From positions 1-61,650 of IMG/VR virus record IMGVR_UViG_3300032324_000012: a stretch of 61,650 bases of DNA. The stretch is one strand, 5' to 3'. Within the stretch, counting starts at the first letter, position 1. Every line of letters begins with the position of its first letter. The position numbers were made by a program, and so were the translations under genes. The notes beneath the pieces were generated by a model. It saw only the letters and a list, made by a program, of their open reading frames with translations. It was not told the DNA's origin and searched no databases. The DNA comes from a virus. Lineage: Duplodnaviria > Caudoviricetes. Of this stretch, positions 4,937 through 58,043 are shown piece after piece.

Positions 4937-5338
4937 TCAGGTGATTGCTTCAAATGTGGCTGTGTAGTTCAACGCACTACCTGTACCAGAGATCACGCCC
5001 ACAGACTGGTTCTCAGTCACGTAGAACGATGTCGTCTTGTCGGTAACAATCACAGAAGCGTTCGGGGGAACGCTAACTTGATACGCAATGTAATACGGTG
5101 TACCGCTTGCATAGGTCGCATTGTTTGAAATAGCCACAGTACAAGTTGCCGCAGATGAAGTGACGTTAGCCACAACAATGCTGGTCACACGGTTTACTGT
5201 ACCAGCCGCAGGTGTCAAGCCTGTCAGCGAAGTTGTACCGTTGTGTGTCCACGCAACTGAAACAGAAGTATTTGACGGAATAACATATGCTGAATTACCG
5301 TAAATACTCGTGACGTTGACAATGTTTGGATTTGCCAT
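4937..5338 (-). CDS. Virion structural protein (beta-rich)
   Basis: 133-aa T/S/V-rich ORF with RBS (aggag) in the tail operon. Confidence 0.7.
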   Translation of the reverse strand: MANPNIVNVTSIYGNSAYVIPSNTSVSVAWTHNGTTSLTGLTPAAGTVNRVTSIVVANVTSSAATCTVAISNNATYASGTPYYIAYQVSVPPNASVIVTDKTTSFYVTENQSVGVISGTGSALNYTATFEAIT

Positions 5339-9579: not shown

Positions 9580-10508
9580 TACACACCGCTCCCGAGGAAC
9601 TGACGACGGGGTACAAAGCGAATTGCGGCCTTCTCGCGGTCTTCACCTGCGGCAAGATCAAACTGTGTGTCATACGCTTCTTTGAGCATTGGGAGCCGTT
9701 GCATCAACTCAGGCACCTTCATGGCGATGTAATAGGCCAAGCCAGCCACCACACACGGCAGGAAACGGAAATTCATGTCGGCTGTCTCTACACCAGCCCC
9801 CGCGTCTTGAATGCGGCGTAGGCGGTAATACACGAGCGTGTACTGTTGCGAGTTATCAGGTGTAAGCCACAGCGTCACGGCTGGTACGTTGGGGTTGTAT
9901 ACAGTTGCGCCCGTAGTGTGCGCCGCTGGCGTTGTATTCTGTTGACCACGGAAACAGTTGTATAGGGTATTCCCTGTGATGTATCCGTAGTTGATAATCT
10001 CGTTGTCCAGCTTGATGAAGCCAGTTCCTGCTAGATTCGACGCGTCTGCCACTGTAATTGTTGTGGCTGTGGACGTAATCGTACCAACTAAAGTTGTTCC
10101 AACAGGGGCTGTCTCACCGCTCATGCGTTGAACCCAAATCTGGATTGGACGTCCCGGCGCTAACTTGTTAGGGATAGTCGCGTACGTGGATACACTGATA
10201 CGTGTGATAGTAAGGTCGGCCTGTGTAGACGCTGTGTTGCCACCCGTACGAATAACATGCTCTAACAAGTCAATGGTGTCATTAGGCAGGGCGTATGTGT
10301 TTTGACCCGGTACGAGAGGAATAGTCCCTTCCTCAATCGTCCACATGTTGATACCACGGTTTTGCCACTCAATGGTCATCAAGTTCATGGAACGACGCGC
10401 AGTGCGTAGGTCATAGCCAGAACGCATCTCGCGGCCCGCACGCTCCCATGCTTCCTCGGCAATTTCCGTGAAGTCAAGATTAAAGAAGGTCGAGCCAGTA
10501 GTGGTCAT
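9579..10508 (-). CDS. Putative head-tail adaptor/tail tubular protein with inserted beta domain
   Basis: EEAWERAG...ARRSMNL...WQNRGIN N-part and FRFLPCVVAGLAYYIA C-part flank a T-rich insert (IKLDNEII.Y...RGQQNT). Confidence 0.6.
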   Translation of the reverse strand: MTTTGSTFFNLDFTEIAEEAWERAGREMRSGYDLRTARRSMNLMTIEWQNRGINMWTIEEGTIPLVPGQNTYALPNDTIDLLEHVIRTGGNTASTQADLTITRISVSTYATIPNKLAPGRPIQIWVQRMSGETAPVGTTLVGTITSTATTITVADASNLAGTGFIKLDNEIINYGYITGNTLYNCFRGQQNTTPAAHTTGATVYNPNVPAVTLWLTPDNSQQYTLVYYRLRRIQDAGAGVETADMNFRFLPCVVAGLAYYIAMKVPELMQRLPMLKEAYDTQFDLAAGEDREKAAIRFVPRRQFLGSGV

Positions 10509-23354: not shown

Positions 23355-23858
23355 ATGAAAGCAGTTAAATTATCCGCCGCAACGATCACCGCCGTTGTTG
23401 ATACTCTCAAAGCTGAAGCTGGCGTTGCAAAACGTTGGGTGAAAGCGGCTGACATGCTTCGTGCAGAGGGTATGACAAGTGAGTTGTTGTTGAACGACAA
23501 GGAGGTTCGCGATGGGTTCAAGAAAGACGTTGTGTTGTTGTCTTTCACCAAAACAGAGCAGAGCATCATGGCACTGCCTGCAACGACCCTGAGCGATGAG
23601 CAGAAGGTCACGAAACGTTGGGTACAACAGCAGATCGGTTCCCGCCTGAATCGCGTTGTGCAACACGTCAAGAAAGCAGAAGACGATGAGTTGTTAAGCG
23701 ATGACGATCGCGGTGCCAAGAAGGTCAGCGACATGGCAACGCGCCTGAAGCGTGACCTGACAAGTTGGATTGACAAGGTTGAGAAAGCAGAAGCAGTGAC
23801 ATTCAGTGCCACTGAGATGGTCAAGTATTTGAAAAGCGCAAGCGCGTTGATCAAGTAA
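23355..23858 (+). CDS. First early gene, helical protein of unknown function
   Basis: 167 aa; aagga RBS; monocistronic with own promoter and terminator. Confidence 0.8.
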   Translation: MKAVKLSAATITAVVDTLKAEAGVAKRWVKAADMLRAEGMTSELLLNDKEVRDGFKKDVVLLSFTKTEQSIMALPATTLSDEQKVTKRWVQQQIGSRLNRVVQHVKKAEDDELLSDDDRGAKKVSDMATRLKRDLTSWIDKVEKAEAVTFSATEMVKYLKSASALIK

Positions 23859-23863
23859 CCCCC

Positions 23864-23895
23864 AAGCCCCGCCCTAAAAAGCGGGGCTTTTTTTT
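23864..23895 (+). terminator. Rho-independent terminator
   Basis: AAGCCCCGC-CCTAAAAA-GCGGGGCTT followed by a T run. Confidence 0.85.
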
Positions 23896-26459: not shown

Positions 26460-26488
26460 AACTTAACTTAACTTAACGAAAGACTATC

Positions 26489-27600: not shown

Positions 27601-27617
27601 AACTAATGGAGAACGAC

Positions 27618-28880
27618 ATGCTAATGATTAACAAACAACTTACAGCCGAGCAACGCTTGGAACGTGCGATCGTAGAGATCATGCACAACGACAGATACTT
27701 TGCACTTGCAGGTGTCTTGATGATTGGTAAGCGCGAGGTGGTGGATGACTTACCAACTGCCGCAACCAATGGACGTGACGAGTTCTATGGACGCAAGTTT
27801 GTGGAATCCCTCAACGATGCCGAGTTGCGCTTTCTTGTATTGCACGAGTGTTATCACAAGTTATACAGGCACTTGCATACATGGCGTCATCTGTACGACG
27901 AGTACCCACGTCTGGCAAACATGGCGTGTGACTATGTGATCAATATCAAGTTACTCGATGACAACAGCGATGGCTTTGCACGTATGCCCATGCGTGATGG
28001 TAAGCAGGTGGGATTGTGCGACCCCAAGTATCGGGGCATGGACAGCGCACAGGTGTACAACTTACTCAAGGAAGAAGCCGAATCCGGTGACGGGGAAGGT
28101 GACGACACGGGCGAGGGCGATGGTCAAGGTGATGGGCGCGGCAACGGAAGCTCGGGAACTGGCATCTCAGATGACCCCCATGGTGGCTTGGACTCGCACG
28201 ATTGGGAAGGCGCGAAGGGATTGTCCGACGAAGATCAAAAGGGGTTGGAACGTGACATCGATGAAGCGATACGTCAAGGTGCCTTGGCCGCAGGCAAGAT
28301 GGGCTCGGGCGGCAACCGCGACTTGGAAGCATTGATGACACCGAAGGTGGATTGGCGCGAAGCATTACGCGAGTTCATAAACACTACGTGTGCAGGGAAT
28401 GATTACTCAACGTGGAGGCGGCCCAACCGCAGGTTTGTGTCATCAGGCTATTACATGCCATCAGGTGTAAGCGAACGTGTGGGCGAACTAATCATCGCTA
28501 TCGATACATCAGGCTCGATCGGTGGGGCTGAGTTGGCTAAGTTCTTGAGCGAGGTCAAGGGTATCTGCGACACAGTACACCCCGATGCTATCCGCTTACT
28601 GTATTGGGACACAGAGGTGTGCGCGGACGAGCGGTATGTGGGTGCGGAGATTGACAACTTAACGAGTTCTACCAAACCCGAGGGCGGAGGTGGCACCACA
28701 GTTGAATGTGTACCCGCATACATCACAGAGCACAGCATCAAAGCGCAAGCCGTTGTTGTGTTGACCGATGGATATCTCGGTGGCTCATGGGGTCAATGGT
28801 CTATGCCCGTGTTGTGGGCAATCGTAGGTGGTAACAAAGAAGTAGCCGATGTTGGCAAAACAATTCATGTTAACGATTGA
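27618..28880 (+). CDS. Metallopeptidase (HExxH) plus VWA domain protein (DUF2201-like)
   Basis: PTAATNG, LHECYH, NMACDYVIN, acidic G/D linker, MIDAS DTSGS, GGGT, VLTDG; start 27618 follows the GGAGA RBS. Confidence 0.85.
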   Translation: MLMINKQLTAEQRLERAIVEIMHNDRYFALAGVLMIGKREVVDDLPTAATNGRDEFYGRKFVESLNDAELRFLVLHECYHKLYRHLHTWRHLYDEYPRLANMACDYVINIKLLDDNSDGFARMPMRDGKQVGLCDPKYRGMDSAQVYNLLKEEAESGDGEGDDTGEGDGQGDGRGNGSSGTGISDDPHGGLDSHDWEGAKGLSDEDQKGLERDIDEAIRQGALAAGKMGSGGNRDLEALMTPKVDWREALREFINTTCAGNDYSTWRRPNRRFVSSGYYMPSGVSERVGELIIAIDTSGSIGGAELAKFLSEVKGICDTVHPDAIRLLYWDTEVCADERYVGAEIDNLTSSTKPEGGGGTTVECVPAYITEHSIKAQAVVVLTDGYLGGSWGQWSMPVLWAIVGGNKEVADVGKTIHVND

Positions 28881-28892
28881 AGGGAGAACGAA

Positions 28893-29861
28893 ATGAGATT
28901 CAATACATTCGATTCAGTAGTCAAGTGGTACGAAGCAACCAAGCCTGTGGTCAGCGTGAGGTTCACGAAGGAAGATGACATTCGCCCAATCAGCGAGCGT
29001 CGCTACACCTACAGACGTATTAAGAAGTACGACGAGAACTGCTATGCGTTGCTCGATGGTGATTACTCTGAGCGCAACACAAGCGCGGAGTATGAGAAGG
29101 CCATGGCACCAATCGTGTGGACACGTGACCCCGAGAGTGGTGATACGTTTGTACGTATCCGTAATGGTGTTGCACCATACCCGCACCATGGACGCTATCG
29201 GTTCTTGCAATGGAACTTACCGCAGACCATGCACTTTGCTATTGATCAGAGCGGTGTGCAGAAGGTCAAGGTATGTACGAGCAACGCACTACGTGAGTAC
29301 CAAGCGTTCAAATCCTGGGATGAGTTTGTGTTACCCAAGACTAAGTTCTCATGGAATCACAACAACAAGCGACCGAATGGCGCGGACGATGGATTGTTCT
29401 TGACGTTCAAGTGCAACGAGGATGGCACGTTCACAAGGTGGGGTGAGAAGATCGCTGTGCGCACACGCAACATCGACATGGACTTGAAACGCGAGTGGAA
29501 GCCGCGACTGCACGAGTTCTATATGTTCATGGCATCTATCGTACCAATGCTTGAGTTCACGTGGTCAACACACAACGAGTACATCAATCAGATTGACGAG
29601 TGGAAAGAAGCCAATGGTGGTGGGCATGCGTTTGGTACTGCATGGGGCAGGACATCTCTGTATGGCATACCAAAAGAAGTTGCACGTGATGTTGTGAAAG
29701 ACACCGAGCATCCGCTACGTGTGGCAGTTGCCGCATTGATAGCGCGAGAGACCGATGGGCATCGACAGATCAAGTCAGAGGAACAGTTGCGTGCGGTACG
29801 TAAGAAGTACAACTACGCTATGAATAAATTTTTACACATGCAAGAAACGAAGGAGATTTAA
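28893..29861 (+). CDS. Hypothetical early protein
   Basis: 322-aa ORF with GGAGAACGAA leader. Confidence 0.8.
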   Translation: MRFNTFDSVVKWYEATKPVVSVRFTKEDDIRPISERRYTYRRIKKYDENCYALLDGDYSERNTSAEYEKAMAPIVWTRDPESGDTFVRIRNGVAPYPHHGRYRFLQWNLPQTMHFAIDQSGVQKVKVCTSNALREYQAFKSWDEFVLPKTKFSWNHNNKRPNGADDGLFLTFKCNEDGTFTRWGEKIAVRTRNIDMDLKREWKPRLHEFYMFMASIVPMLEFTWSTHNEYINQIDEWKEANGGGHAFGTAWGRTSLYGIPKEVARDVVKDTEHPLRVAVAALIARETDGHRQIKSEEQLRAVRKKYNYAMNKFLHMQETKEI

Positions 29862-29862
29862 T

Positions 29863-30846
29863 ATGTCATACATTCACACTACAGTAGCACGTATCAATAA
29901 AGATACTGCCGATTACATCGAGCGGTTCAATAATCGTGTCTTAACGACAGACGATGCAACCAAAGATGCTATGCAGATATACATCAATAACACGCGGGTG
30001 TTTGACGGACTGCACGTTGGTAAGAAGTTAGGCACGTTCTGCGACGCTATCCTCAAGGCCAACCGCCATGTGAAGTTCGGTGTTGCCAAGACTATCAAGG
30101 GTGAGTTCATTCACGGCACGAATCGTCAGGCACTAGCAGAGGTGTGGGTGTACATGCCTGAGCATGAGTACGCCATGATGCGTGTGGGATATGCCGACTA
30201 CGCTGTGAAGGGTAGTTCAGAATCTAAGTTCGGTGTGTACTCACGGCTACTACAGAACAACAAGTTTGACTCGCAACGCGATCAGTACTACATGGTAACG
30301 TCTGACGACTTAGACCGCATCATGAAAACTGTGAAGAAAGTCATGCGACCATACGCACCGCATGAAGCGGCTAACGTGGTGTTCGAGGTATACCAAAGCA
30401 AGGTACACAACAATGTGTGGACAGCCACGTCTGAGGCACGTGATGCGAAGGACGCCGCGATAGGGCTTAACGACTTACGCAATGAGTTGTTTGCACTGTA
30501 CGACTTGGGCTATGAGTTTGCATCCGAGACCTTGAAGGACAAGGTGGGCAAGTGGAAGAGGGCGGTAACTGCATTGCACGAAGCCGAAGCCAAGAAACGC
30601 AACGCATACTTTGTAAGTGTGGTACTGCGCGGTGAAGAGTTACTGTGCAACGTGATGACTGTGGATGATGTCAGGAAGGTACACAATATCAAGGACACAA
30701 ACGCCACACAAACATTCAAGATGGAGGACTTGCCCGAGGACATCGCGGAGAAGGTCGCGACCTTGGGTATGGTAGACAAGGGGCACTACGTCGAGGACGT
30801 AGGTATGAAGGTATCTGATACTACGTTTTGGGTTGATCGTACATGA
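29863..30846 (+). CDS. Hypothetical early protein
   Basis: 327 aa with aaggag RBS; C-terminus LPEDIAEKVATL...VEDVGMKV...FWV resembles that of the next gene. Confidence 0.8.
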   Translation: MSYIHTTVARINKDTADYIERFNNRVLTTDDATKDAMQIYINNTRVFDGLHVGKKLGTFCDAILKANRHVKFGVAKTIKGEFIHGTNRQALAEVWVYMPEHEYAMMRVGYADYAVKGSSESKFGVYSRLLQNNKFDSQRDQYYMVTSDDLDRIMKTVKKVMRPYAPHEAANVVFEVYQSKVHNNVWTATSEARDAKDAAIGLNDLRNELFALYDLGYEFASETLKDKVGKWKRAVTALHEAEAKKRNAYFVSVVLRGEELLCNVMTVDDVRKVHNIKDTNATQTFKMEDLPEDIAEKVATLGMVDKGHYVEDVGMKVSDTTFWVDRT

Positions 30847-31273: not shown

Positions 31274-31303
31274 ATTTTTTAACTAAGAACGAAGGAAACT
31301 AAA

Positions 31304-31615
31304 ATGCGTAAGAAGAAGTCTGCTACCCAACGGGTACGCGAAATGATCGAGCAAGGCCACAACAACAAATACATTGTGGCTCAACTCAAATGCAAACCAC
31401 AGGTGGTGTACAACGTACGCTATCAAATCAACAAGTCCAAGGGGCTTGGTGCCTTGGGCAAACAGGGAACTGGCATCTCTGCGCCCCCCGTATGGAGCCC
31501 CCCTCCGATTGCACCTATGCCTAAACTTGGTGAGTATCAGATCACCATGGTTGAGCCCACGCCTCCAACATTGTGGCAACGTGTCAAGGGGTGGTTCGGT
31601 GGCACAAACGCCTGA
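31304..31615 (+). CDS. Small basic protein with possible HTH
   Basis: MIEQGHNNKYIVAQLKCKPQVVYNVR is HTH-like. Confidence 0.6.
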   Translation: MRKKKSATQRVREMIEQGHNNKYIVAQLKCKPQVVYNVRYQINKSKGLGALGKQGTGISAPPVWSPPPIAPMPKLGEYQITMVEPTPPTLWQRVKGWFGGTNA

Positions 31616-32601: not shown

Positions 32602-32792
32602 GTGGTTTTGTTAAACGTCAACTTGATATTGGTGGTAGCCGACAGCCCGTACATCAATACAAGTTATGTAACAAGTGTGAAGAGATGAGGCCCCCGGAAG
32701 GTGGCATACAGATGAGCCCCAATAGATGGCACTGCGCCCTTTGTTGGACTAAACGAGTAACGATCGATAAATTAAATGGAGAACGAAGATGA
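32598..32792 (+). CDS. Small Zn-finger protein
   Basis: CNKC...CALC. Confidence 0.65.
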   Translation: MSGFVKRQLDIGGSRQPVHQYKLCNKCEEMRPPEGGIQMSPNRWHCALCWTKRVTIDKLNGERR

Positions 32793-33367
32793 TAAGCAAC
32801 GACGAACTGAACGAAGCCACTGCAATACTGCGCGGTGCGTGGAAACAAACAACCGAACACAAGGGTGGGTACTGTGCCGTATGTGATAAGTGGGGGAAGA
32901 TCAACACCCTGCCATTGACAGGCAGTATGGTCAAGGCGTTGATATGGCTACACCACGAGCATATCGTATCGGGTGATAAGTGGATTAACGTACCTGCACG
33001 TGCCCCGCGCTACGTCATGCGTTCTTACTCTATATCTACTCTTAAGCATTGGAATCTGGTGGCACAAAGATACGTACCGCCCCCGACCAAGGAAGAGATT
33101 AAGGAGGGTGCACCGCGCAAGACTAAGACATCAGGCATGTGGCAGATCACACCGCATGGCATTGACTTTCTGAATGAGGCGGTCAAGGTTCCTAAGAAGT
33201 TGTTTGTCTACAACGATACCCGAGTAGGCGCAAGCGACGAACTAATCACGGCACGTGAATGCTTTGAGAAAGAGTTCAACTACGACGAGATGATGTCAAG
33301 CACGTACGCTTACAAAGGTGACCCACAAATAGACGATGGAGAAGAAGATGAATCTAATCACGATTGA
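32789..33367 (+). CDS. Hypothetical protein (possible winged-helix)
   Basis: 192 aa; CAVC, LKHWNLV, SGMWQITPHG; GGAGAACGAAG leader. Confidence 0.7.
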   Translation: MISNDELNEATAILRGAWKQTTEHKGGYCAVCDKWGKINTLPLTGSMVKALIWLHHEHIVSGDKWINVPARAPRYVMRSYSISTLKHWNLVAQRYVPPPTKEEIKEGAPRKTKTSGMWQITPHGIDFLNEAVKVPKKLFVYNDTRVGASDELITARECFEKEFNYDEMMSSTYAYKGDPQIDDGEEDESNHD

Positions 33368-36756: not shown

Positions 36757-36952
36757 AGAATTTAATAGAATGGCAGTTAGGTGTGAGTGTGCCGTTCGGG
36801 GTGTTTCTAGTTGACTGTTTTCAACCCTTTAACCGCACCAGTCAGCATGCGTAGACTTTCGCGCAGGAACTGACAAGAGTAAGTTGGTATATCGAGCAGA
36901 TTGGAGACCCCATTCTGCTCGATATGCTTTATAAAAAATAAGTGAGAACGAA

Positions 36953-38494
36953 TTGGAAATCATAGACAACAAGGCATTGTTGCTGACACTGCGCAACCCG
37001 CAACGTGTCACTACAGTCATTCCGAAAAGCAAAGAACTATCCAACAATCAAGTTGTTGTCAAGTGGGGTTTAGACGAAGCCCAAGTTCTGCGCAACCTCA
37101 AGATCAAAGGGGTGCCTAGTCCCATCTTGGGACAGTACAACTGGCCGGGTCAGTACAAACCCTTTGATCACCAAAAAACAACGTCCGCTTTCCTTACCCT
37201 CAACAAACGTGCGTTCTGCCTAAACGAGCAGGGCACAGGCAAGACAGGCTCAGTCATTTGGGCGGCAGACTATCTGCTTAAGCAAAAGCGTATTCGACGT
37301 GTGCTAGTGATCTGCCCCTTGTCAATCATGGATTCCGCATGGAGAGCCGATCTATTTAAGTTTGCCATGCACCGCTCGGTAGACATTGCTTATGGCGCAA
37401 AGAACAAACGCCAAGCCATCATTAACGGCGCATCAGAGTTTGTAATCATCAATTACGACGGCGTTGAAATTGTGGCCGATGACATCTCACGGGGCGGGTT
37501 TGACCTGATTGTTGTCGATGAGGCCAACGCCTATAAGAACAGCATGACGAAGCGGTGGAAAGTACTGAACGACCTTATCAAACCCGATACATGGTTGTGG
37601 ATGCTAACGGGTACTCCTGCCGCGCAATCCCCCCTTGATGCTTACGGCTTGGCTAAGTTAGTCAACCCCCAAGGTGTGCCACGTTTCTTCTCATCCTTTA
37701 GGGACATGGTCATGCTCAAGCTGACCAACTTTAAGTGGATGGCTAAAGAGAACGCAACAAACACAGTGTTTAACGCCTTGCAACCTGCTATCAGGTTTAC
37801 CAAGGATGAGTGCTTAGACTTACCGGACATGACGTATGTCAAGCGAACAGTCGAGTTGACCAAGCAACAGCAGAAGTACTACGACCTATTGAAGAAGCGC
37901 ATGGTAGTGCAAGCCGCAGGGGAAGAGATCACGTCAGTCAATGCTGCCGTCAACATGAGCAAACTCCTACAAATATCTTGTGGCGCGGTGTACACCGATA
38001 CGGGCGAAACCGTTGAGTTCGACATTAAGAATCGCTATGCCGTACTGAAAGAAGTTATTGAGGAAGCAAGCCAAAAGGTGCTGGTGTTTGTGCCCTTTAA
38101 GAGCGTGATCACTATCCTGACAGACAAACTCAATGATGAAGGTATTAAGACTGAAGTAATCAGTGGTGATGTGCCTTTGAACAGGCGCACCGACATCTTT
38201 AACAGGTTCCAAACCGACCCCAACGACACACGAGTGCTTGTCATCCAACCTCAGTCAGCCGCCCATGGTGTAACCCTGACAGCCGCGAACACTGTGGTGT
38301 GGTGGGGGCCAACTTCATCCCTTGAGACCTACGCACAAGCCAACGCCCGAGTGCACCGCTCGGGTCAGCGACACCCAACAACAGTGGTACAACTCGTCGG
38401 GTCAGGTGTAGAAAGACACGTATACAACTTATTAGATAATAAAATAGATGTTCACACAAAAATAGTTGATCTTTACAAAGAAATACTTGAATAA
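36953..38494 (+). CDS. SNF2-family (SF2) helicase
   Basis: EQGTGKT, VVDEA, LTGTP, HGVTLTAA, QANARVHRSGQ. Confidence 0.92.
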   Translation: MEIIDNKALLLTLRNPQRVTTVIPKSKELSNNQVVVKWGLDEAQVLRNLKIKGVPSPILGQYNWPGQYKPFDHQKTTSAFLTLNKRAFCLNEQGTGKTGSVIWAADYLLKQKRIRRVLVICPLSIMDSAWRADLFKFAMHRSVDIAYGAKNKRQAIINGASEFVIINYDGVEIVADDISRGGFDLIVVDEANAYKNSMTKRWKVLNDLIKPDTWLWMLTGTPAAQSPLDAYGLAKLVNPQGVPRFFSSFRDMVMLKLTNFKWMAKENATNTVFNALQPAIRFTKDECLDLPDMTYVKRTVELTKQQQKYYDLLKKRMVVQAAGEEITSVNAAVNMSKLLQISCGAVYTDTGETVEFDIKNRYAVLKEVIEEASQKVLVFVPFKSVITILTDKLNDEGIKTEVISGDVPLNRRTDIFNRFQTDPNDTRVLVIQPQSAAHGVTLTAANTVVWWGPTSSLETYAQANARVHRSGQRHPTTVVQLVGSGVERHVYNLLDNKIDVHTKIVDLYKEILE

Positions 38495-38515: not shown

Positions 38516-38545
38516 AAAGATTCCAACAACCAACCGGAGAACGAA

Positions 38546-38950
38546 ATGACAGAAGAAACAGCCAAAGTACCAGTTGAAAAATTGGTCAAGGTATATTTAA
38601 AGATGAAGGCCAAGCACGACGAAGCCCGTATCGCCTACGAGGAAGGGGAAAAAATTCTCAAGGGTCAGATGGACAAAGTCAAAGCGGCTTTACTTGCATA
38701 CTGCAAGGAACAGAACATCGAGAGTGTGCGTACGGAAGAAGGTTTGTTCTACCGCACTGTCAAGGCTAACTATTGGACGAGCGATTGGGAGTCCATGCGT
38801 AAATTTATTGTAGAGCAGGGTGTGCCCGAACTTCTACATGAGCGTTTGCATCAGGGAAACATGAAACAATTCCTTGAAGCCAACCCCGAACTGCTACCAC
38901 CGGGTCTCAACGTGGATAGCGAATACACCATAACTGTACGGAGGAAATGA
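38546..38950 (+). CDS. Replication-module protein (coiled coil)
   Basis: 134 aa, GGAGAACGAA leader; SVRTEEG...DW...LLHERL...PPGL. Confidence 0.75.
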   Translation: MTEETAKVPVEKLVKVYLKMKAKHDEARIAYEEGEKILKGQMDKVKAALLAYCKEQNIESVRTEEGLFYRTVKANYWTSDWESMRKFIVEQGVPELLHERLHQGNMKQFLEANPELLPPGLNVDSEYTITVRRK

Positions 38951-39210
38951 TGACAGAGCCGTTTGTGCCGATCGAAGCGTTGGCTAAACACTTCACGGTC
39001 TCAGTCTCAACTGTACGTGCTTGGTTGCGTCAGGGCTATATCCCTAAAGATACATACGTAAAAATAGGCAACACCTATCGTTTCAATGTGTCTCAAGTGG
39101 TAGCCGCCCTTTCTAGCAAGCCCAAGGACGACGTGAAGATGATTGAACCTGACGTTGGACTACCCGTCCAACTTGAACTTGATTTTGAAACAACTGATAG
39201 AGATATTTAA
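38947..39210 (+). CDS. Excisionase/MerR-like HTH DNA-binding protein
   Basis: IEALAKHFTVSVSTVRAWLRQGYIP...KIGNTYRF. Confidence 0.75.
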   Translation: MMTEPFVPIEALAKHFTVSVSTVRAWLRQGYIPKDTYVKIGNTYRFNVSQVVAALSSKPKDDVKMIEPDVGLPVQLELDFETTDRDI

Positions 39211-39222
39211 CTGGAGAACGAA

Positions 39223-40137
39223 ATGAGCGATTTAACAATTTTTGGTAAACCCAACAACGCCGCCCTTGCATTACTTAGCGGTATCGAAGACAACCTGACA
39301 AGCACCCTTGCGGGTAGCACAGGTAGCGGCAATCGTCGCATCTCCATTGAAGGCGGTGCATTCCGCGAATTCATTGGCGGTAAAGAAGTTCGCGTTAGCG
39401 AAGATCGTGCAATGAACGTTGTGTTGGTTAATGCCGCACCCGTATCCCGCATGTTCTTTGAGGGCGTGTACCAAAAGGGCAAGATCACAAAGCCAACATG
39501 TTGGTCGTCTGATACCCAACGCCCCGACTCCGCTGTTCCACAAGATCAGCGTCAGGCGTCATTCTGCAAAGATTGCCCACAACACGTTAAGGGTTCTGCA
39601 TCAAGTGGTGAAGGCCGCGCTTGCCGATTCCAACAGCGTATTGCTGTGATGATTGAGAGCGAGTTGAGCAAGCAAGAAGTCTATCAAATCAACCTGCCAT
39701 CAACATCAGTGTTCGGTGATGCAGAAGGTAAGAAGATGCCACTGCAAGCCTATGGTCGCTACCTCAAGGCACACAACACACACGCCATTAGTATCGTGAC
39801 CGAGATGCGTTTTGATATTGACAGCGCAACACCTAAGTTGATCTTCAAGCCGGTACGCGCATTGGAAGAGCACGAGTTGAAAGCCGCCTTGGAGATGCGT
39901 GATCACGCTGACACTGTCAAGGCAATCACTTTGAACGTGTCTCAGATGGATGGTGTGATTCCCGCACCGAAAGCCATCGAAGCCGCACCTGCCCCTGCAC
40001 CAAAACCCAAAGCCGCACCTGCTAAAGTTGAAGCCGAGGAAGTAGTGGAAGAGCCTATCAAGGTAACAAAGAAGGCCGCAACCCCTGCGGCTGAGAAGTC
40101 TGATATTGCTGACATCGTGGGTGATTGGGACGACTGA
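39223..40137 (+). CDS. Putative ssDNA-binding protein
   Basis: Upstream of the primase; Cys cluster (C..CKDC..C), P/A/K linker, acidic-aromatic tail DIVGDWDD. Confidence 0.55.
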   Translation: MSDLTIFGKPNNAALALLSGIEDNLTSTLAGSTGSGNRRISIEGGAFREFIGGKEVRVSEDRAMNVVLVNAAPVSRMFFEGVYQKGKITKPTCWSSDTQRPDSAVPQDQRQASFCKDCPQHVKGSASSGEGRACRFQQRIAVMIESELSKQEVYQINLPSTSVFGDAEGKKMPLQAYGRYLKAHNTHAISIVTEMRFDIDSATPKLIFKPVRALEEHELKAALEMRDHADTVKAITLNVSQMDGVIPAPKAIEAAPAPAPKPKAAPAKVEAEEVVEEPIKVTKKAATPAAEKSDIADIVGDWDD

Positions 40138-40248: not shown

Positions 40249-43101
40249 ATGGAAACTAAAACATTTTTGGAGGCAGTGTTGGGAGACACTGGGCACTACT
40301 GTGTCTTTGCGGGTCGTTTATCGGACGAACGCAAAGTGCAGAAGTTCTACAGTTCTCTTGATGAAGTCATCCATGCCGCCCACAATTTGGACAACGAAGG
40401 TTATGACGCGTATTTTGCACTCGGTACGTTTGAAGAGGCGGGGTCTCGTAAAGTACCCAACGTAAAACAACTCAGGTCGTTCTTCTTAGATTTAGACTGT
40501 GGGCCGTCAAAGGACTACGAAACACAGGCAGACGCGTTACTAGCACTACGCACGTTCTGCAAAACAGTAAGATTACCGAAGCCAACACTCGTAAATTCAG
40601 GGCGTGGTATCCACGTGTACTGGCCACTGACCGAATCTGTTTCACGTGAAACATGGATTCCTGTTGCGGAGCGGTTCAAAAGACTATGCCGTGAACACAA
40701 TATGTATGGTGACCCTGCGGTTACTGCTGACGCGGCTCGGGTACTTAGAGTTCCCCTGACGCACAATCACAAAGACACCCCGCCGAAAGCTGTGGTGTTT
40801 ATCGGCTCCCCTGCCGACCCAATCCCGTTTGAGTTGTTCTGCAACTTGATCGGAGATGATGAGGTGCCGCCCGTATCCAAGAAGTACGCGCCCCGTGAAG
40901 CGGACGCAATGATGCAAGCCCTGTCGGGTAGTTACATCAGCCGCTTTAAAACTATCCTGATTAAGACTCAGGCAGGTAGCGGGTGTGCACAGATTGGCGA
41001 AGCGGTGATGAATCAAAACAACATCTCTGAACCACTGTGGCGAGCCGCATTATCTATTGCTAAGTTCTGTGTTGATGGGGGCAAAGCCATCCACAAGATT
41101 TCATGCAACCATGAGGAATACACTGCCGAGCGTACTGAAGCCAAGGTTGACCTGATCAAAGGCCCATACCTGTGCGAACGCTTTGACGAGTACCGCCCTG
41201 ATGTCTGCACGAACTGTCAACATTGGGGCAAGATCAAGTCACCCATTTCGCTTGGGCGAGAAGTACAAGAGGCTGAGGAAGCGGATAACGTAGTGGTGCA
41301 AAAGCCGCTAGGTATCCACAACGCAACCCCTATCAAGTACAACATACCCAAGTACCCCCACCCGTATTTCCGTGGGAAGAATGGTGGAGTGTTCAAGCAC
41401 TCCAAGAACGCTGAAGGCGAGGACAAAGACGTCATGGTTTATTTCAATGACCTGTACGTTGTTCGTCGCTTGAAAGACCCCGAGATGGGTGAAGCGTTAG
41501 TGATGAGACTGCACCTGCCAAGAGACGGGGTACGTGAATTTACGTTGCCTCTGACTGCGGTAGGAACTAAAGATGAGTTCAGAAAATACTTAGCCTCGCA
41601 TGGCGTTGCCGTCTTGAACGTGGGCGAGTTAATGGAGTACACAATGAGATGGGTAAACGAGTTACAGTTTACGGCCGAAGCTGACGAAGCACGTAGGCAG
41701 TTTGGTTGGACAGATGACAAGGGCACATCCTTTTGCCTTGGCAATATGGAAGTGTTCAAAGATCGCGTTGAGATCAATTCACCTTCAAGTGCAACTGCGG
41801 GTCTATTCCCTGCCTTCAACCCAAAAGGTTCGTTGGAAGAGTGGAAGAAAACCATGTCGTTCTACAACAAGGCCGGTATGGAGATGCACCAATTCATAGT
41901 TGGTATGTCATTCGGTGCGGTGTTGATGGAGTTTCAACCAATCAATGCGGCGGCGTTTCACATATACAGCAAAGGTTCCGGTCTTGGTAAGACAACAGCA
42001 ATGTTGGCAGGTGCCTCGATATGGGGTGACCCTGAACTGACTATGCTCCAAGAGCGTGATACGTACAACTCAAAGATGAACCGCGCTGAGGTCTACAAAA
42101 ACCTGTGCGTGTACATGGATGAGATGACCAACACCGCACCGAAAGACCTGTCTGACTTTGCCTATCAACTTCCTAGTGGTATGCAACGAAACCGCATGGG
42201 GCCTAAAGGTAACGTTGAGCGGGTACGTGGTAAGCCATGGAAAACTTTGTTTGGTACGACAGGTAATACCAGCATGATTGAGCGTATCGCGTTGTATAAG
42301 GCTCTGCCACAAGCAGAAGCCCAACGGGTATTGGAATACAAAGCCATACCTGTCAACTTCGAAACCAAGGAAGAGACAGACAAGTTCAGTGCCGCAATCA
42401 AGGAACACTACGGGGTGGCGGCTGTACCCTATCTCCAGTATGTCATGAACAATCTGGAGCCGGTAAAAGAACTTGCCCTGACAACTCAACGCAAGATTGA
42501 CATAGCGGCGGGCCTCAAAGCCGATAACCGCTTTTGGTCTGTCTTAGCATCACGTTCGATTACTGGCCTGATGTTGGGTAAGAAGTTGGGTTTGATTGAC
42601 TGGCAGATTGCACCAATCGTGCAGTGGATTATCAAGGTCATGCAAGACGCACGTACCGACATGGCCGAGATGGGTGTTGATGTTGAAAGCATCTTGACAG
42701 ACTTCTTGGCTGACCACTACAACGGCATCCTGCGTATCAAGAGTACGGATGATGCACGTAAACAAGCAACAGGGTTAGATCATCTGATTCACCCCGAGGC
42801 CGTACCACGAATGAACTTTGTGGCTCGGTACGAGTACGACATTAAAAGGTTGTACCTTCTGCCCAAGCCGCTCAAAGAGTGGTGCGGTAAACAACAGATC
42901 AACTATGGTGGATTTGTTGATGGCCTAAAAACAGGACGCACGAAAGCAAAGAAGGAAAAGGTTCGTTTGGGTAAAGGCACCCATTCAAACTGGCCACCCG
43001 TCGATGCAATTACTGTGGACTGCTCATCATTTATGGACGATGAAACTGAGCAAAGTATGGCGACAACCGCCGCGCTCCTCCAAAAACAGGCTACACCTTG
43101 A
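40249..43101 (+). CDS. Primase-helicase (AEP/RepB-type primase plus DUF927-type helicase)
   Basis: FFLDLD and SGRGIHVYW primase motifs, CERF..CTNC, Walker A GSGLGKT, Walker B VYMDE. Confidence 0.85.
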   Translation: METKTFLEAVLGDTGHYCVFAGRLSDERKVQKFYSSLDEVIHAAHNLDNEGYDAYFALGTFEEAGSRKVPNVKQLRSFFLDLDCGPSKDYETQADALLALRTFCKTVRLPKPTLVNSGRGIHVYWPLTESVSRETWIPVAERFKRLCREHNMYGDPAVTADAARVLRVPLTHNHKDTPPKAVVFIGSPADPIPFELFCNLIGDDEVPPVSKKYAPREADAMMQALSGSYISRFKTILIKTQAGSGCAQIGEAVMNQNNISEPLWRAALSIAKFCVDGGKAIHKISCNHEEYTAERTEAKVDLIKGPYLCERFDEYRPDVCTNCQHWGKIKSPISLGREVQEAEEADNVVVQKPLGIHNATPIKYNIPKYPHPYFRGKNGGVFKHSKNAEGEDKDVMVYFNDLYVVRRLKDPEMGEALVMRLHLPRDGVREFTLPLTAVGTKDEFRKYLASHGVAVLNVGELMEYTMRWVNELQFTAEADEARRQFGWTDDKGTSFCLGNMEVFKDRVEINSPSSATAGLFPAFNPKGSLEEWKKTMSFYNKAGMEMHQFIVGMSFGAVLMEFQPINAAAFHIYSKGSGLGKTTAMLAGASIWGDPELTMLQERDTYNSKMNRAEVYKNLCVYMDEMTNTAPKDLSDFAYQLPSGMQRNRMGPKGNVERVRGKPWKTLFGTTGNTSMIERIALYKALPQAEAQRVLEYKAIPVNFETKEETDKFSAAIKEHYGVAAVPYLQYVMNNLEPVKELALTTQRKIDIAAGLKADNRFWSVLASRSITGLMLGKKLGLIDWQIAPIVQWIIKVMQDARTDMAEMGVDVESILTDFLADHYNGILRIKSTDDARKQATGLDHLIHPEAVPRMNFVARYEYDIKRLYLLPKPLKEWCGKQQINYGGFVDGLKTGRTKAKKEKVRLGKGTHSNWPPVDAITVDCSSFMDDETEQSMATTAALLQKQATP

Positions 43102-43303
43102 CGATCTTGCACCCGATGGGGTGCGGTTTGTCCTCGATTGGGATAACTTCCCGATAGGTGGGTCTGTGTTTATACCATGTATAAACACCTTGGAGTGCGT
43201 GCGGCAGGTCTATGATATTACCCAAAGACGTTATTGGGTGGTGGAATACCGTCCCCGTATTGAGGATAGCAGGTGGGGGGTTCGCATTTGGAGACGACTG
43301 TGA
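43040..43303 (+). CDS. Small hypothetical protein, last early/middle gene
   Basis: Likely start MKLSK at 43040; IGGSVFIPC...GVRIWR. Confidence 0.6.
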   Translation: MKLSKVWRQPPRSSKNRLHLDDLAPDGVRFVLDWDNFPIGGSVFIPCINTLECVRQVYDITQRRYWVVEYRPRIEDSRWGVRIWRRL

Positions 43304-43312
43304 TACTATCCC

Positions 43313-43388
43313 GACCGAGCAGGTTGCCTGTCTCCTTCGTTCTCCTTAGAGGAGTTTATCCCCCGCCCTAATAAGCGGGGGATTTTTT
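43313..43388 (+). ncRNA. Candidate trans-acting anti-RBS small RNA
   Basis: TGtGATACT extended -10 at 43299-43307; core TCTCCTTCGTTCTCCTT (43331-47) antisense to leaders of at least 7 genes; terminator at 43358-88. Confidence 0.55.
43358..43388 (+). terminator. Rho-independent terminator at convergence of the two genome arms
   Basis: ATCCCCCGC-CCTAATAA-GCGGGGGAT-TTTTT. Confidence 0.85.
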
Positions 43389-46300
43389 ATTCCTCGTCTT
43401 CGTCGTCGTACTCGCGAATATTACGCATCAATTCAGGTCGCAGTGACTTATTAAGTGTAATGCCGTGGTACATCTCGGAGGTTGTCCGCATGTGCTGTGC
43501 CATAGAGTTGTCAATCGTGTCGGGTGTAATTGCCGCAGTCGGGTGCTTCTTATTGAAGTCAAGCATCTTCTGCAACACACTTGCACGTTCTTGCCCGTCG
43601 CCATTGCGGGTGGCAATGTAAAAGTTGCGCAGTAACTTGGTGCGGTCTTCCATGGCCTTGCGCTCAATGTTCTTCAGCGAACTATTGATTTCCAACTGAC
43701 GGGTGTATTCGGCAGGGGCGAAACCAAAGAACTGAGCAAACGTATTCCAATAGCCAAGGTCACCAGTGATAGGGTCACCACGCAAGGTGTTTGCACCTTC
43801 AGTACCAAAACGCATGGACTTCAACATGTTACCCATTGCAGACGGGAGCATCTGCTCGACACCGCGTTGGGTGTAGCCCTCGTTGATCAAGTTTAGGCCA
43901 CGTTCCATTCGGCTTACAACACCAAGCACAGGGCCACCTGCTTGCTCCATCAGACTCAATAAGACGCTATCGCTTGGTTTTGTGGTGGTGTCGCGGAACA
44001 ATAAGTCGCTCAGACCCACACGATTGGCAATCTCTACGCCAAACACAGCATTACCAAGACCACTGTAGTACAACTCACCCATCCACTTACGTGCGGCTGT
44101 ATCCATATCATCGTCATCATCACCCTTAAAGATGTTGTAGACCATGGCGGCAACACCGAACATCGGTACACCGGATGCACCGGCAATCAGGGCGGCAGAG
44201 CCGTAGATACCTGCAATCTGTTTCATGGCGGCTTTGCGGACTTCGGGGTCTTGGTCTTTTAGTGCATCCCGTGCGGTCTTAAACAGCATGTAGTACATAG
44301 ACACGCCGTAACGTTTGTACATGAAAAGAATTTTACCCAAAGGCCCTTGAGCGATACGCGGCGCAGCGGCGGCGGCTGTACCACCGTTAGTAAGTTCTGT
44401 TACGTACACCGCATAGTCAGCGGCTTCTTGTTCTGCCTTGGCGTCAAGGGTGCGACCCTTCTTACGCATCTGATTGAGTTCCAACTCGTAAGCCGCAATC
44501 AGTGCAACTTGTCGGTTCATGCGTTCGCCATGATGGAAAACGAAACCGGAAGCGGCATTGACCTTGGTGAGCAAGTTGTTCTCTTCGCCTACGTCAAGGA
44601 TGTCGTATACCTGTGAGCGGTTCAACTGACCACGTGCACCGGCTACCTTGACCAAAGTTTCAAGGTGCTTCAACTCAGGGTGCTTGGAGAAATCGTAGTT
44701 GTCCATGGATGGGAAAGCCTTGACCTTTACCATCTTCTCGCCCTTATCGGTGGGCACTAACATTTCTACTTCGCGGTCAAACCCACTGCCTGTAAAAATA
44801 CGAGCGGCCCGGCCAATAGCCGTTGCTGTAACACCGTATCCGTACTTACCACCCAAGTAAGGCATCACAACCAGCGGGACTTGCGCCAAGTTGACGATGG
44901 CTGACGACACGTTGAAACCGAGCGTCATGTTAAAGCCAAACGATGTGGCTAACTTAGACCACTGCGGTACGTTGGGGCTGATCGCATAGTCAATACGTGC
45001 ATCCATCTCATCCATATACTGCACGGCTTCTTCTTGGTTGCCTTGGCTACGGACGTAGTCTTTGATCTCAGTGCGCAGTTGCTCAAACTTCTGACCATAT
45101 TCCATGTTAGAGAGTTGGCGGGACAGGCTAAACGTCTTTGTACGCAACGCACCAATCGCATCGTGTTGGAAACCTAGCGTTCCTTTACGTCGACGGAATG
45201 ACTGAGCAAACGATGTCTCAGGCAGGGTGTTTAAGAACAACCGCATCACTTCTTCAGTGACATCCGAGTTGACCTTGTTGGCTTCCAATGTACGTAACAC
45301 CCCATTTACAAACGATGTGGCGGGTGCGCGGCGGTAGTTAATTTGGTTTGCGTTGGCAAACTTCTGTACGTCGTCAGCCTTGGCTGACGTGTCAGCCTTG
45401 AGTTCCTTGATTGCTTGGTCGCGAGCATAGTTAGTCTCGTATGCCTCGACGTAAAACTCTCGGTTGCCGTTGCGTGGGTCGACCGCGCTGTATGACAGCC
45501 AGTACTTACCTGAACGAGTAAGTGGGAAGTAAGGTTCGATATGACCACTTGCAAACAGGCGTTGGTAGACTTCGGCCTTAATTTTATTGGCAGTGCCTTT
45601 GTCCTCGATAGCCGAGTCAATACGTGCGTCAAGTACGTCCTTGACTTGTTCATACATCTTCTTGTACGTGTCACGCATCTGGTTGTACACAGAGTGACCG
45701 CTCTCGCCAAGTTTGCGCCAGTCGGCTTGCATGGCATCCCAAGCCTTTAACTTCTCCGCATCTTTAGCGTATTCGGCGCGGGGCTTGGATGGGTCAACTT
45801 GCTCTAACGTACTTGTATATATGACGTTGTTGAGGGCGTCTACCTTATCGGAATTGGTTTTTGCCCATTTTTCCACACGCTCAATAATTGGCTCAATAGA
45901 TTGACTACGGGCGTTCTCTGACCCTGCGCGTTCCCCCACAAGCACATCCAACTTATTTGCCATCGGGATGTATTTTTTCGCTACGTCGACCAATGCGTTA
46001 AGCGGTAGTGCACTGCGTACAATGTTTTTAATTGCGTTGGGTGTAGTACCCGTGAAGAACTCGTCAATACGGCCTTTCCACTCCGCGCTGATGTATGGCA
46101 GTTCGTGATAGCTTTCGCTCAATCCATCAAGAAGTTTGCCACCCCTACCTTGCAAAGCGGCGGCGTACAACACATCCCCACTGCGGAATTCGGGTGCAGG
46201 GGAAAGAATCTCGTTAATCATTGCATCGGTAGCGTCAAGCGCAGAGTTTGGACTCTTTGTTTCCATATTCATCAAACGACGAATAAAGTTACCAACCGAT

Positions 46301-53286: not shown

Positions 53287-57692
<4,406 letters not shown>

Positions 57693-57693
<1 letters not shown>

Positions 57694-58043
57694 TATCCGA
57701 CCTTCCAATTCGTTCCGTCTGAATATACAGGCACGGTTACGGCACCGCCAGTCACAACGGTTGCCCCAAACGTCGGAGTTAAAGCGTCTGTTACAAAAGC
57801 CCGTGCACCCCTACCCGAAGTAACTGCGCTAGGCAGTGTGGCTACAGTGTAATTGGTCAACGGAGGTAGAACGCCGGTCGTTGTTTTAAATTGCGCAAGA
57901 ATTGCGTCAACCCTATTGAAGTACAGACGCAAAACGTTGTTAAGTTGATCGTGGTATTGACGCACATAGACTTCAGGTGCAAGCGGCAAGTTAGGCGCAA
58001 CAACCTGATTGATCTCGTCCTCTGACGTAACAATTAACGTCAT
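57693..58043 (-). CDS. Tail-associated protein
   Basis: APNLP..P..Y...LRLYFN N-part; YTVATLP...[11 protein letters not shown]-part. Confidence 0.65.

Follow-up and report, generated by a model that had tools for sequence, protein, structure and literature searches.

We examined a 61,650-nucleotide stretch of DNA from a virus (Duplodnaviria; Caudoviricetes; IMG/VR record IMGVR_UViG_3300032324_000012, positions 1 to 61,650), referred to below as the window. The two gene arms of this phage converge on an 83-nt gap (43304-43386), which lies between the TGA stop (43301-03) of a plus-strand ORF and the stop (43387-89) of a 2086-aa minus-strand ORF. The gap holds a CU-rich core, TCTCCTTCGTTCTCCTT, preceded by an extended -10-like box and a hairpin and followed by an intrinsic terminator. 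Features of this locus and of the gene leaders that match it are listed in the table.

Features of the convergent gap and of the matching leaders in the window
Position	Strand	Feature	Sequence or description
27608..27620	+	Leader of the metallopeptidase-VWA (DUF2201) gene (candidate target)	GGAGAACGAC-ATG
28883..28895	+	Leader of the 322-aa gene (candidate target)	GGAGAACGAA-ATG
29846..29865	+	Leader of the 327-aa gene	AACGAAGGAGA-N6-ATG; second layout, pairs with the first CUCC copy
31286..31306	+	Leader of the 103-aa gene 31304-31615	AGAACGAAGGA-N7-ATG
32778..32791	+	Leader of the 192-aa gene	GGAGAACGAAG-ATG
36944..36955	+	Leader of the SNF2-family helicase (candidate target)	GAGAACGAA-TTG
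38536..38548	+	Leader of the 134-aa gene 38546-38950 (candidate target)	GGAGAACGAA-ATG
39213..39225	+	Leader of the 304-aa gene 39223-40137 (candidate target)	GGAGAACGAA-ATG
43103..43303	+	Conserved small ORF (66-aa core)	Its stop codon forms part of the proposed promoter
43281..43286	+	Weak -35-like element	TTCGCA, 17 nt upstream of the hexamer, inside coding sequence
43301..43309	+	Extended -10-like box	TGATACTAT; TG from the TGA stop, hexamer TACTAT (43304-09)
43317..43334	+	5' hairpin (HP1)	GAGCAGG-UUG-CCUG(U)CUC; predicted transcript start at 43316/43317
43331..43347	+	CU-rich seed	TCTCCTTCGTTCTCCTT; part kept beyond the close clade, CTTCGTTCTCC(TT), 43335-43347
43342..43354	+	Weak hairpin (HP2)	CUCCU-UAG-AGGAG; partly masks the second CUCC, with UUCGUU 5' of it open
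43358..43389	+	Intrinsic terminator	9-bp stem (stem region 43358-83), 8-nt loop and U-run; overlaps the stop codon of the 2086-aa gene

A conserved unit in the convergent gap

We identified 62 related IMG/VR loci (denoted L followed by a number) that hold both flanking genes, and 59 of these keep the same unit, with the exception of L039, L072, and L073. The unit consists of the TGA stop codon followed by TAnnnT, a 5' hairpin at the predicted transcript start, an unpaired CUCC-containing stretch, and a plus-strand intrinsic terminator. The architecture is kept down to 35–50% protein identity. The protein encoded by the small upstream ORF is conserved in relatives down to 36% identity. This protein matches no Pfam or PHROG family, and although its AF2 model is confident (pLDDT 93), it has no PDB fold match better than E = 0.5.

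Among 45 unique gap sequences from relatives, the stop codon is TGA in 44, and the hexamer has T1 in 45, A2 in 45, and T6 in 41, while positions 3-5 vary freely, as in the profile of a sigma-70 -10 element. The 76 predicted genes of the window end in TAA (38), TGA (33), or TAG (5). The preliminary description placed the -10 at GATACT (43302-07); however, the relatives show that the conserved hexamer lies 2 nt downstream. A strict consensus scan found no sigma-70 site in 42000-45000, the box has only a 4/6 hexamer plus TG, and conservation of the weak -35-like sequence is confounded by the conserved G-V-R-I-W codons. The promoter remains a proposal.

A local hairpin starts at the 7th or 8th nucleotide after the hexamer in 33 of the 45 unique sequences, and five class-O sequences carry a longer stem (classes here are groups of relatives defined by their seed). 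All four modelled pairs of HP1 show changes on both sides, with 99% of alignment cells paired, and six of eight pairs in the terminator stem covary. On the model alignment as a whole, 96.4% of cells are paired and 10 of 12 pairs change on both sides, which none of 500 shuffles reaches, and pairing collapses when the partners are slid. The window RNA folds with an MFE z-score of -3.6. This alignment is fitted to the structure, however, and the covariance model did not reach classes J, K, L, M, and O at E ≤ 1; these are assigned by synteny and architecture only. A MAFFT alignment of all classes was not structure-consistent and was not used for counts. One additional hit of the model in the window, at 23813-23895 (E = 0.18), is only a similar terminator without a seed.

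At least one CTCC lies between the -10-like box and the terminator in 45 of 45 unique sequences, and at least three of its four nucleotides are unpaired in the MFE fold in 34 of 45. The preliminary description proposed that two anti-SD halves around UUCGUU serve two leader layouts (SD-AACGAA and AACGAA-SD). This holds only for the close clade of the window: the first TCTCCTT copy is kept only in relatives of 96–99% identity, and is lost even there in L005 and L009. The family-wide feature is one or two CUCC motifs, and in other clades one of them sits in the loop of the 5' hairpin. GGAG, AAGG, or AGGA is kept 3' of the seed in classes A and B, but in shifting register.

Several features favor the plus strand. 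The T-run lies on the plus side of the terminator only, and minus-strand tails with at least five T occur in 0 of 46 sequences. (An automated terminator search absorbed the T-run into an outer stem in 14 window-clade sequences, and the low plus-strand T counts there are artefacts.) In addition, G-U cells number eight against two A-C cells, and all 34 covariance-model hits at the gap are on the plus strand. An alternative is that late minus-strand transcripts read through the hairpin and carry a sense copy of the leader cassette that titrates a leader-binding protein or ribosomes, or sponges a plus-strand RNA. Read-through is plausible without a T-run on that side, the minus strand folds as well as the plus strand (z = -4.7), and a decoy would also be expected to co-vary with the leaders. 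However, the conserved TGnTAnnnT and its spacing to the hairpin have no role on the minus strand, and no leader-binding protein is identified. Moreover, both leader layouts of the window are sub-words of one contiguous complement, and in L021 the match runs on over the AUG, which fits base pairing better than one protein site. We consider this alternative unlikely.

Complementarity to leaders of the same phage

Exact 9-11-mers of the complement of the core lie on the plus strand directly 5' of the start codons of eight genes (table), in agreement with the preliminary description. There is also one internal copy at 36596, which had not been listed, and the only minus-strand copy is the core itself. 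GAGAACGA gives seven matches against a mean of 1.10 in 100 dinucleotide shuffles, none of which reaches seven, and AACGAAGGA gives three matches against 0.39, with 0 of 100 shuffles reaching three. A leader match of at least 9 nt occurs in 7 of 24 plus-arm genes and 1 of 50 minus-arm genes (Fisher p = 0.0012), although the 31304 gene was not in that gene list. Shuffled RNA bodies give a mean of 0.26 leaders against eight observed. The leader of the 322-aa gene gives the best RNAduplex energy of 74 leaders (-24.9 kcal/mol). Weak matches reported previously at 26475 (AACGAA) and 33338 (GGAGAAGAAG-ATG, polA) are present. The element was described as unseen at late-gene starts; however, one late leader (gene 4937-5338, TCTAAGGAG) matches 9 nt of the 3' half of the core. 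Any CUCC motif pairs with any SD, and specificity thus rests on the flanks.

The exposed stretch and the leaders of three orthologous genes (the SNF2 helicase and the genes at 38546 and 39223) change together between clades. The window clade pairs UUCGUUCUCC with GGAGAACGAA, whereas L021 pairs CAUCUCGUUUCUCCU with AGGAGAAACGAGAUG (15 nt), L025 pairs UCUCGUUUCUCCUG with CAGGAGAAACGAGA (14 nt), L041 pairs UCAAUUCUCC with GGAGAAUUGA, L043 pairs UCUCCUUGGUU with AACCAAGGAGA, L051 pairs GGUUCUCCAUA with UAUGGAGAACC, L055 pairs ACAUUCUCCUGUU with AACAGGAGAAUGU, and L060/L061 pair CCAUUCUCCA with UGGAGAAUGG. Leaders of the helicase match their own RNA in classes A, B, K, and M, and those of the 38546 gene have own matches of 10–15 nt in classes A, B, G, H, J, and K. 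With 14 seed classes and the discovery clade left out, the mean own match is 9.36 nt against 6.99 nt for other classes, own is strictly best in 7 of 14, and 0 of 200,000 permutations reach the observed sum. Control leaders show almost no effect (5.33 against 5.13 nt). Gene starts in relatives are inferred from tblastn plus the nearest start codon, and an earlier comparison with a permissive definition of start sites was too noisy and was replaced by these orthologous leaders.

The co-variation is not universal. Six of the 14 classes (C, D, E, F, I, and O) have at most 8 nt of match at the three leaders. Class C (L026) keeps A/B-like leaders while its RNA reads CUCGUCUCUCC, and L004 has a C inserted in the seed with unchanged leaders. 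Nevertheless, the pattern is repeated with a different word in a 52%-identical genome, that behind L060. There, GGAGAATG occurs seven times on the forward strand and once on the reverse strand, and the reverse copy is the loop of the proposed RNA, while the reversed-word control gives 0 and 0. Six forward copies lie 2–5 nt before ATG or TTG, and one lies across a start. In class O genomes the evidence is weak, since this word occurs only two times forward and one time reverse, with a control of 1 and 1 in one of them.

These comparisons argue strongly against a gap that is merely a terminator plus a decayed ribosome-binding site or a chance match. Although SD-like words are common before genes and short matches are easy to find, the counts are far above shuffles, no minus-strand ORF follows the word in any clade, and stems, seed, and leaders covary. 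It is likewise improbable that the RNA acts mainly on host mRNAs, as a general anti-Shine-Dalgarno RNA or a mimic of the 16S tail. CUCC is the only family-wide invariant of the exposed stretch and six classes lack long matches to the three phage leaders, but the flanks of CUCC co-vary with phage leaders in at least seven classes, which is not expected if host SDs were the target, although host targets cannot be examined while the host is unknown. A search of genome contigs gave one 30% hit in an uncultured betaproteobacterium MAG, and the window has no tRNA genes.

A probable anti-leader RNA and its relation to known systems

We favor the interpretation, though with only fair confidence in the absence of a demonstrated transcript and of evidence of repression, that the gap encodes a plus-strand small RNA of about 72 nt (roughly 43317-43389) that occludes a private ribosome-binding cassette and probably tunes or shuts off translation of several replication-stage genes. 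Its exposed stretch (UUCGUUCUCCUU in the window) is complementary over 9–15 nt to the Shine-Dalgarno-to-start-codon region of a subset of the early/middle genes of the phage, and different sequences maintain this complementarity in different clades. We infer that host RNA polymerase transcribes the RNA from its own promoter, although it may also arise as the 3' end of the operon mRNA. The open UUCGUU may serve as a toehold on the AACGAA spacer, after which pairing would open HP2 and cover GGAG. This would block 30S binding and lower translation of the helicase/replication-module genes, possibly also exposing them to RNase. Contigs of relatives in four RNA libraries (marine, freshwater sediment, wastewater, and lake; Logan), which hold 5–14% of the sampled words, are 88–95% alike, and two run across the gap (41146-43546 and 43269-43501). 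As contigs give no ends, strand, or level and DNA carry-over is possible, they support no conclusion on expression. The early-to-late or dormancy switch suggested in the preliminary description remains conjecture, and although no repressor was said to be visible, an 87-aa HTH_17 protein is encoded at 38947-39210.

A less likely alternative is that there is no separate sRNA gene, and that the element is the 3' untranslated tail of the early/middle polycistronic mRNA, pairing within or between molecules with leaders further upstream. The element lies directly behind the last plus-strand ORF, shares the terminator of the operon, and has its three best-supported targets 2–6.5 kb upstream on the same strand, and the scan called no promoter. 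However, the -10-type conservation and the fixed 6–7 nt from the hexamer to the base of the 5' hairpin are unexplained for a mere tail. Five targets at 27.6–32.8 kb also appear, from the initial reading of the sequence alone, to be separated from it by several terminator-like palindromes. The two readings are not exclusive.

More tentatively still, this widespread family of uncultured freshwater, marine, and wastewater phages may run an RNA-based translational regulon, in which each lineage carries its own cassette on a set of helicase/replication-module genes together with a matching RNA of roughly 70 nt at the end of that arm, the two co-evolving like a lock and key. Such pairs would be a natural source of mutually orthogonal riboregulators. 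Phage sRNAs described so far come mostly from prophages and act on host genes or on a single immunity operon (PMC12197685, PMC4933390), and our literature searches found no description of an RNA such as this one. If confirmed, it would be an RNA regulon inside a lytic programme.

A search with Rfam 15 covariance models, C4 and IsrK included, gave no match at gathering score on either strand of the window. DNA comparison with 50,697 phage records likewise gave no match in near or distant mode. The primase/helicase protein finds only distant named phages, and the best, Pseudomonas phage Rollin (31% identity), has overlapping ORFs and no gap at its convergent point and is thus no model for this RNA. 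sRNA2 of phage PAK_P3 is described as having an 11-nt tRNA T-loop-like stretch and single 11-nt matches inside two genes (PMC4933390).

The c4 antisense RNA of phages P1/P7 is also a small trans-acting phage RNA whose exposed sequences pair around a ribosome-binding site of a phage mRNA and block translation (PMC12197685). However, c4 belongs to a temperate immunity module and controls one operon (ant), whereas here a genome with a lytic-type layout has eight or more candidate leaders, and the RNA sits at the 3' end of the early/middle arm with its own -10-like box and terminator. In the icaR mRNA of Staphylococcus aureus, a pyrimidine-rich motif (UCCCCUG) in the 3'UTR pairs with the Shine-Dalgarno region, prevents formation of the initiation complex, and creates an RNase III substrate (PMC3868564). 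That is a bacterial case with one mRNA acting on itself, while the present element has several leaders, a conserved promoter-like box that would make a free RNA, and lineage-specific flanks that co-vary with the targets. LhrC and other UCCC-motif sRNAs of Firmicutes use short C/U-rich motifs, often in two or more copies, to pair with SD sequences of several mRNAs (PMC12282133), but are host-encoded and regulate host metabolism, whereas here the motif is CUCC with clade-specific extensions matching a phage cassette. In logic, the proposed RNA is a counterpart of a protein translational repressor such as T4 RegA (PMC3014915), which probably binds at the ribosome-binding regions of many early phage mRNAs and turns their translation down. 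RegA is a protein, however, and the regulator proposed here is an RNA that reads its targets by base pairing.

Genome context and the convergent gap

The window is a complete 61,650-bp phage-type genome, and its assembly holds nothing else. It consists of three arms, two of minus-strand genes and, between them, one of plus-strand genes (see table). The plus arm encodes a MoxR-like ATPase, a DUF2201 metallopeptidase-VWA protein, DNA polymerase A, an exonuclease, an SNF2-family helicase, an HTH protein and a 950-aa primase/helicase, whereas the right minus arm starts with a 2086-aa DarB-like protein. No DNA-level relative exists among 50,697 phage records, and the nearest named phage by primase is Pseudomonas phage Rollin at 31% identity.

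Features of the convergent gap and of associated sites (window coordinates unless a locus is named)
Feature	Coordinates	Strand	Sequence or remark
Left arm	to about 23.9 kb	-	
Plus arm	24.7 to 43.3 kb	+	
Right arm	43.4 kb to the end	-	
Small ORF	43103-43303	+	66-aa core
Convergent gap	43304-43386		83 nt, between the TGA stop of the small ORF and the stop of the 2086-aa gene
Extended -10-like box	43301-09	+	TGATACTAT
Core	43331-47	+	TCTCCTTCGTTCTCCTT
Terminator	43358-83	+	followed by a T-run
Inferred RNA	43317-43389	+	about 72 nt
Additional copy inside a gene	36596		
Late gene with a 9-nt match	4937-5338		matches the 3' half of the core
1473-aa late gene	53287-57708	-	leader at about 57709-57721, GGAACGAA, start codon TTG
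HTH_17/MerR-like protein, 87 aa	38947-39210	+	leader ACGGAGGAA
DNA polymerase A start region	33336-33350	+	GGAGAAGAAG before ATG 33348
Second terminator	23813-23895	+	CCCCGCCCTAAAAAGCGGGG plus T-run
Seed variant in locus L004	L004:5192-5284		TTCGTTCCTCC
Metatranscriptome contig with an inserted C	43269-43501		inserted C at 43341
Nonstandard gap in locus L039	L039:6764-7250		about 485 nt with extra plus-strand ORFs
Palindrome-preceded leaders in the 52%-identical genome	L085, L086 (G001:C1:6510-6570 and 10364-10424)		TTAGTCG...CGACTAA

The preliminary description placed 9-11-mers of the complement of the core at the translation starts of plus-strand genes, and every one of these positions is right. 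All of them are on the plus strand directly in front of start codons. There is one more copy inside a gene, and the only minus-strand copy is the core itself. The word GAGAACGA occurs 7 times against 1.10 in dinucleotide shuffles, and 0 of 100 shuffles reach 7. Similarly, AACGAAGGA occurs 3 times against 0.39, and 0 of 100 reach 3. Using a simple gene list, from which the 31304 gene was missing, we found a perfect antisense match of at least 9 nt to the RNA body in 7 of 24 plus-arm leaders and 1 of 50 minus-arm leaders (Fisher p = 0.0012). A thousand shuffled bodies gave 0.26 such leaders on average and at most 5, against 8 observed.

Late genes use TAAGGA(G/A)-type Shine-Dalgarno (SD) sequences, although one of them matches 9 nt of the 3' half of the core. 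In addition, the 1473-aa late gene has the same spacer and start codon as the SNF2 helicase leader (GAGAACGAA-TTG), and its leader gives a 7-nt match to the RNA. DNA polymerase A probably starts at ATG 33348 (MNLITIDFET), and not at the upstream ATG 33336 listed by the ORF finder; its leader is the cassette with one base missing. In contrast, the HTH_17/MerR-like DNA-binding protein, which is encoded between two cassette-bearing genes, has a leader that lacks the cassette in all clades.

Anatomy and structure of the unit in related loci

A search of IMG/VR with the primase/helicase confirmed 103 of 106 candidate stretches, and we kept the best 80 loci (designated L), at 99-49% identity. In 62 of them both neighbours of the gap are present in the same order: primase, small ORF, then the giant gene on the other strand. 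In 59 of these 62, and in the window, the two stop codons are 57-120 nt apart, and these gaps give 45 different sequences. The three exceptions are L039, where extra ORFs are inserted, and L072 and L073, where the giant gene abuts, its frame running up to 7 nt from the stop of the small ORF, and no terminator is seen. The small ORF has a 66-aa core conserved through the whole family, with P4, D5, W13, S21, F23, G59, R61, W63 and R64 invariant in 25 sequences. It is predicted to fold confidently (pLDDT 93, beta-alpha-beta-beta), but has no Pfam or PHROG family and no PDB fold match better than E = 0.5. Its constant linkage to the RNA raises the idea, which remains speculative, of a partner protein.

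The stop of the small ORF is TGA in 44 of 45 unique sequences, whereas TGA ends 33 of the window's 76 predicted genes. It is always followed at once by a hexamer with T1 in 45 of 45, A2 in 45 of 45 and T6 in 41 of 45, while positions 3-5 vary freely. This is the information profile of a sigma-70 -10 box with the TG of an extended -10. However, a strict promoter scan calls nothing here. In the window the box lies 2 nt downstream of the register proposed in the preliminary description, whose last T is not conserved.

A hairpin begins at the 7th or 8th base after the hexamer, which is the expected +1. This holds in 33 of 45 sequences by an automatic count, and also in five sequences of class O (seed classes are designated by letters) whose stem is longer than our cut-off, whereas classes D, E and L lack this hairpin. 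Every one of the 45 sequences has at least one CTCC between the hexamer and the terminal hairpin, and 24 have two. In 34 the motif is mostly unpaired in the MFE fold. In the remaining 11, which are the window's clade and its neighbours, it sits in a weak 4-5-bp hairpin with a downstream GGAG/AAGG. In several clades one CUCC lies in the loop of the 5' hairpin (L017, L026, L041-45, L055, L060).

The unit ends in a GC-rich terminal hairpin followed by a T-run on the plus strand. On the minus strand no sequence has at least 5 T in the 8 nt behind the stem (0 of 46), against 27 of 46 on the plus strand, where the shortfall is an artefact in 14 window-clade rows in which the automatic picker swallowed the T-run.

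A covariance model built from 16 sequences of classes A-C found the element on the plus strand at the expected place in 33 loci and in the window. It found nothing comparable elsewhere, apart from a weak hit (E = 0.18) to the second terminator, which is nearly identical to the sRNA terminator but has no seed. On that alignment 96.4% of cells pair, and ten of 12 pairs show changes on both sides, including all four modelled pairs of the 5' hairpin. No shuffle of 500 reaches the observed values, and sliding the partners by 1-3 columns drops pairing to 41-59%. The alignment is fitted to the model, so these numbers lean towards the structure. G-U cells outnumber A-C cells 8 to 2. No Rfam family matches.

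Co-variation of seed and leader sequences

We next examined whether the leader motif and the antisense core co-vary, the key test put forward in the preliminary description. Three leaders that carry the motif in the window (SNF2 helicase 36953, g38546 and g39223) have orthologues inside the fetched flanks, although gene starts in relatives are inferred. Their leaders differ between clades, and so does the RNA, in matching fashion: GGAGAACGAA with UUCGUUCUCC in the window clade, L014 and L023; AGGAGAAACGAGAUG with CAUCUCGUUUCUCCU in L021 (15 nt, one base inserted on both sides); CAGGAGAAACGAGA with UCUCGUUUCUCCUG in L025 (14 nt); GGAGAAUUGA with UCAAUUCUCC in L041; AACCAAGGAGA with UCUCCUUGGUU in L042 and L043; UAUGGAGAACC with GGUUCUCCAUA in L048 and L051; AACAGGAGAAUGU with ACAUUCUCCUGUU in L055; and UGGAGAAUGGA with UCCAUUCUCCA in L060 and L061.

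We took one representative for each of 14 seed classes and left the discovery clade out. The best match of a genome's three leaders to its own RNA averages 9.36 nt, against 6.99 nt to the RNAs of other classes. The own RNA is strictly best in 7 of 14 classes and co-best in 8, and none of 200,000 permutations of RNA against genome reaches the observed sum. Under independent drift from a complementary ancestor, own and cross pairs should decay alike, so this excess indicates compensation. Inherited events are counted once per class here. With 25 finer groups the result is the same (0 of 20,000 permutations, by match length and by RNAduplex energy). Five control leaders (primase, g38947, polA and two others) give 5.33 against 5.13 nt, p about 0.02.

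Not all lineages conform to this pattern. Classes C, D, E, F, I and O have at most 8 nt at the three leaders, although class O has an 11-nt match at another gene. L026 keeps A/B-like leaders with a mismatching RNA. L004 carries one extra C inside the seed while its leaders keep GGAGAACGAA, and a metatranscriptome contig shows an inserted C at the same place. The RNA either tolerates a bulge or this lineage has a weakened pair. Moreover, any CUCC pairs with any SD.

The pattern seen in the window recurs, with a different word, in a second genome. In the 47,970-bp record behind L060 (52% primase identity), the class-M word GGAGAATG occurs 7 times on the forward strand and once on the reverse strand, where the copy is the loop of the RNA's 5' hairpin. 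The word read backwards occurs 0 and 0 times. Six forward copies lie 2-5 nt before ATG or TTG, and the seventh lies across a start. In the 52%-identical genome two of the cassette-bearing leaders are preceded by palindromes. These are of the same type as the GTTAGGC-N3-GCCTAAC palindromes noted earlier before early genes of the window, so palindrome and cassette may form one conserved leader module.

Inferred mechanism and related systems

The sequence shows a unit with promoter-like, hairpin, seed and terminator parts on the plus strand, and complementarity that covers the SD, the spacer and in some clades the AUG. We infer that host polymerase makes an RNA of about 72 nt (MFE -29.7 kcal/mol, z = -3.6), although no transcript has been shown, as four RNA libraries contain 88-95% relatives only as contigs, which also span the flanking genes. 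In this model the open UUCGUU nucleates on the AACGAA spacer, and pairing then extends over GGAG by opening the weak CUCCU/AGGAG hairpin, which occludes 30S binding on the helicase/replication-module messages. The earlier observation of sequences complementary to the core at gene starts is confirmed, and its interpretation as a small RNA antisense to a shared ribosome-binding-site element is supported in silico. However, whether the RNA accumulates late and so times a switch is conjecture. A purely 3'-UTR form, like icaR (PMC3868564), is the main rival and may coexist. A minus-strand decoy is less likely because the -10 profile, the terminator polarity and the G-U bias all point to the plus strand.

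We found no description of an sRNA of a virulent-type phage that reads a shared cassette on its own genes, in literature searches that did not extend to supplements or to most subscription journals. The inferred RNA would work like the P1/P7 c4 RNA (PMC12197685) and like C/U-rich anti-SD sRNAs, such as the UCCC motif of LhrC (PMC12282133). It is not a member of any Rfam family, and its targets, position and genome type differ.
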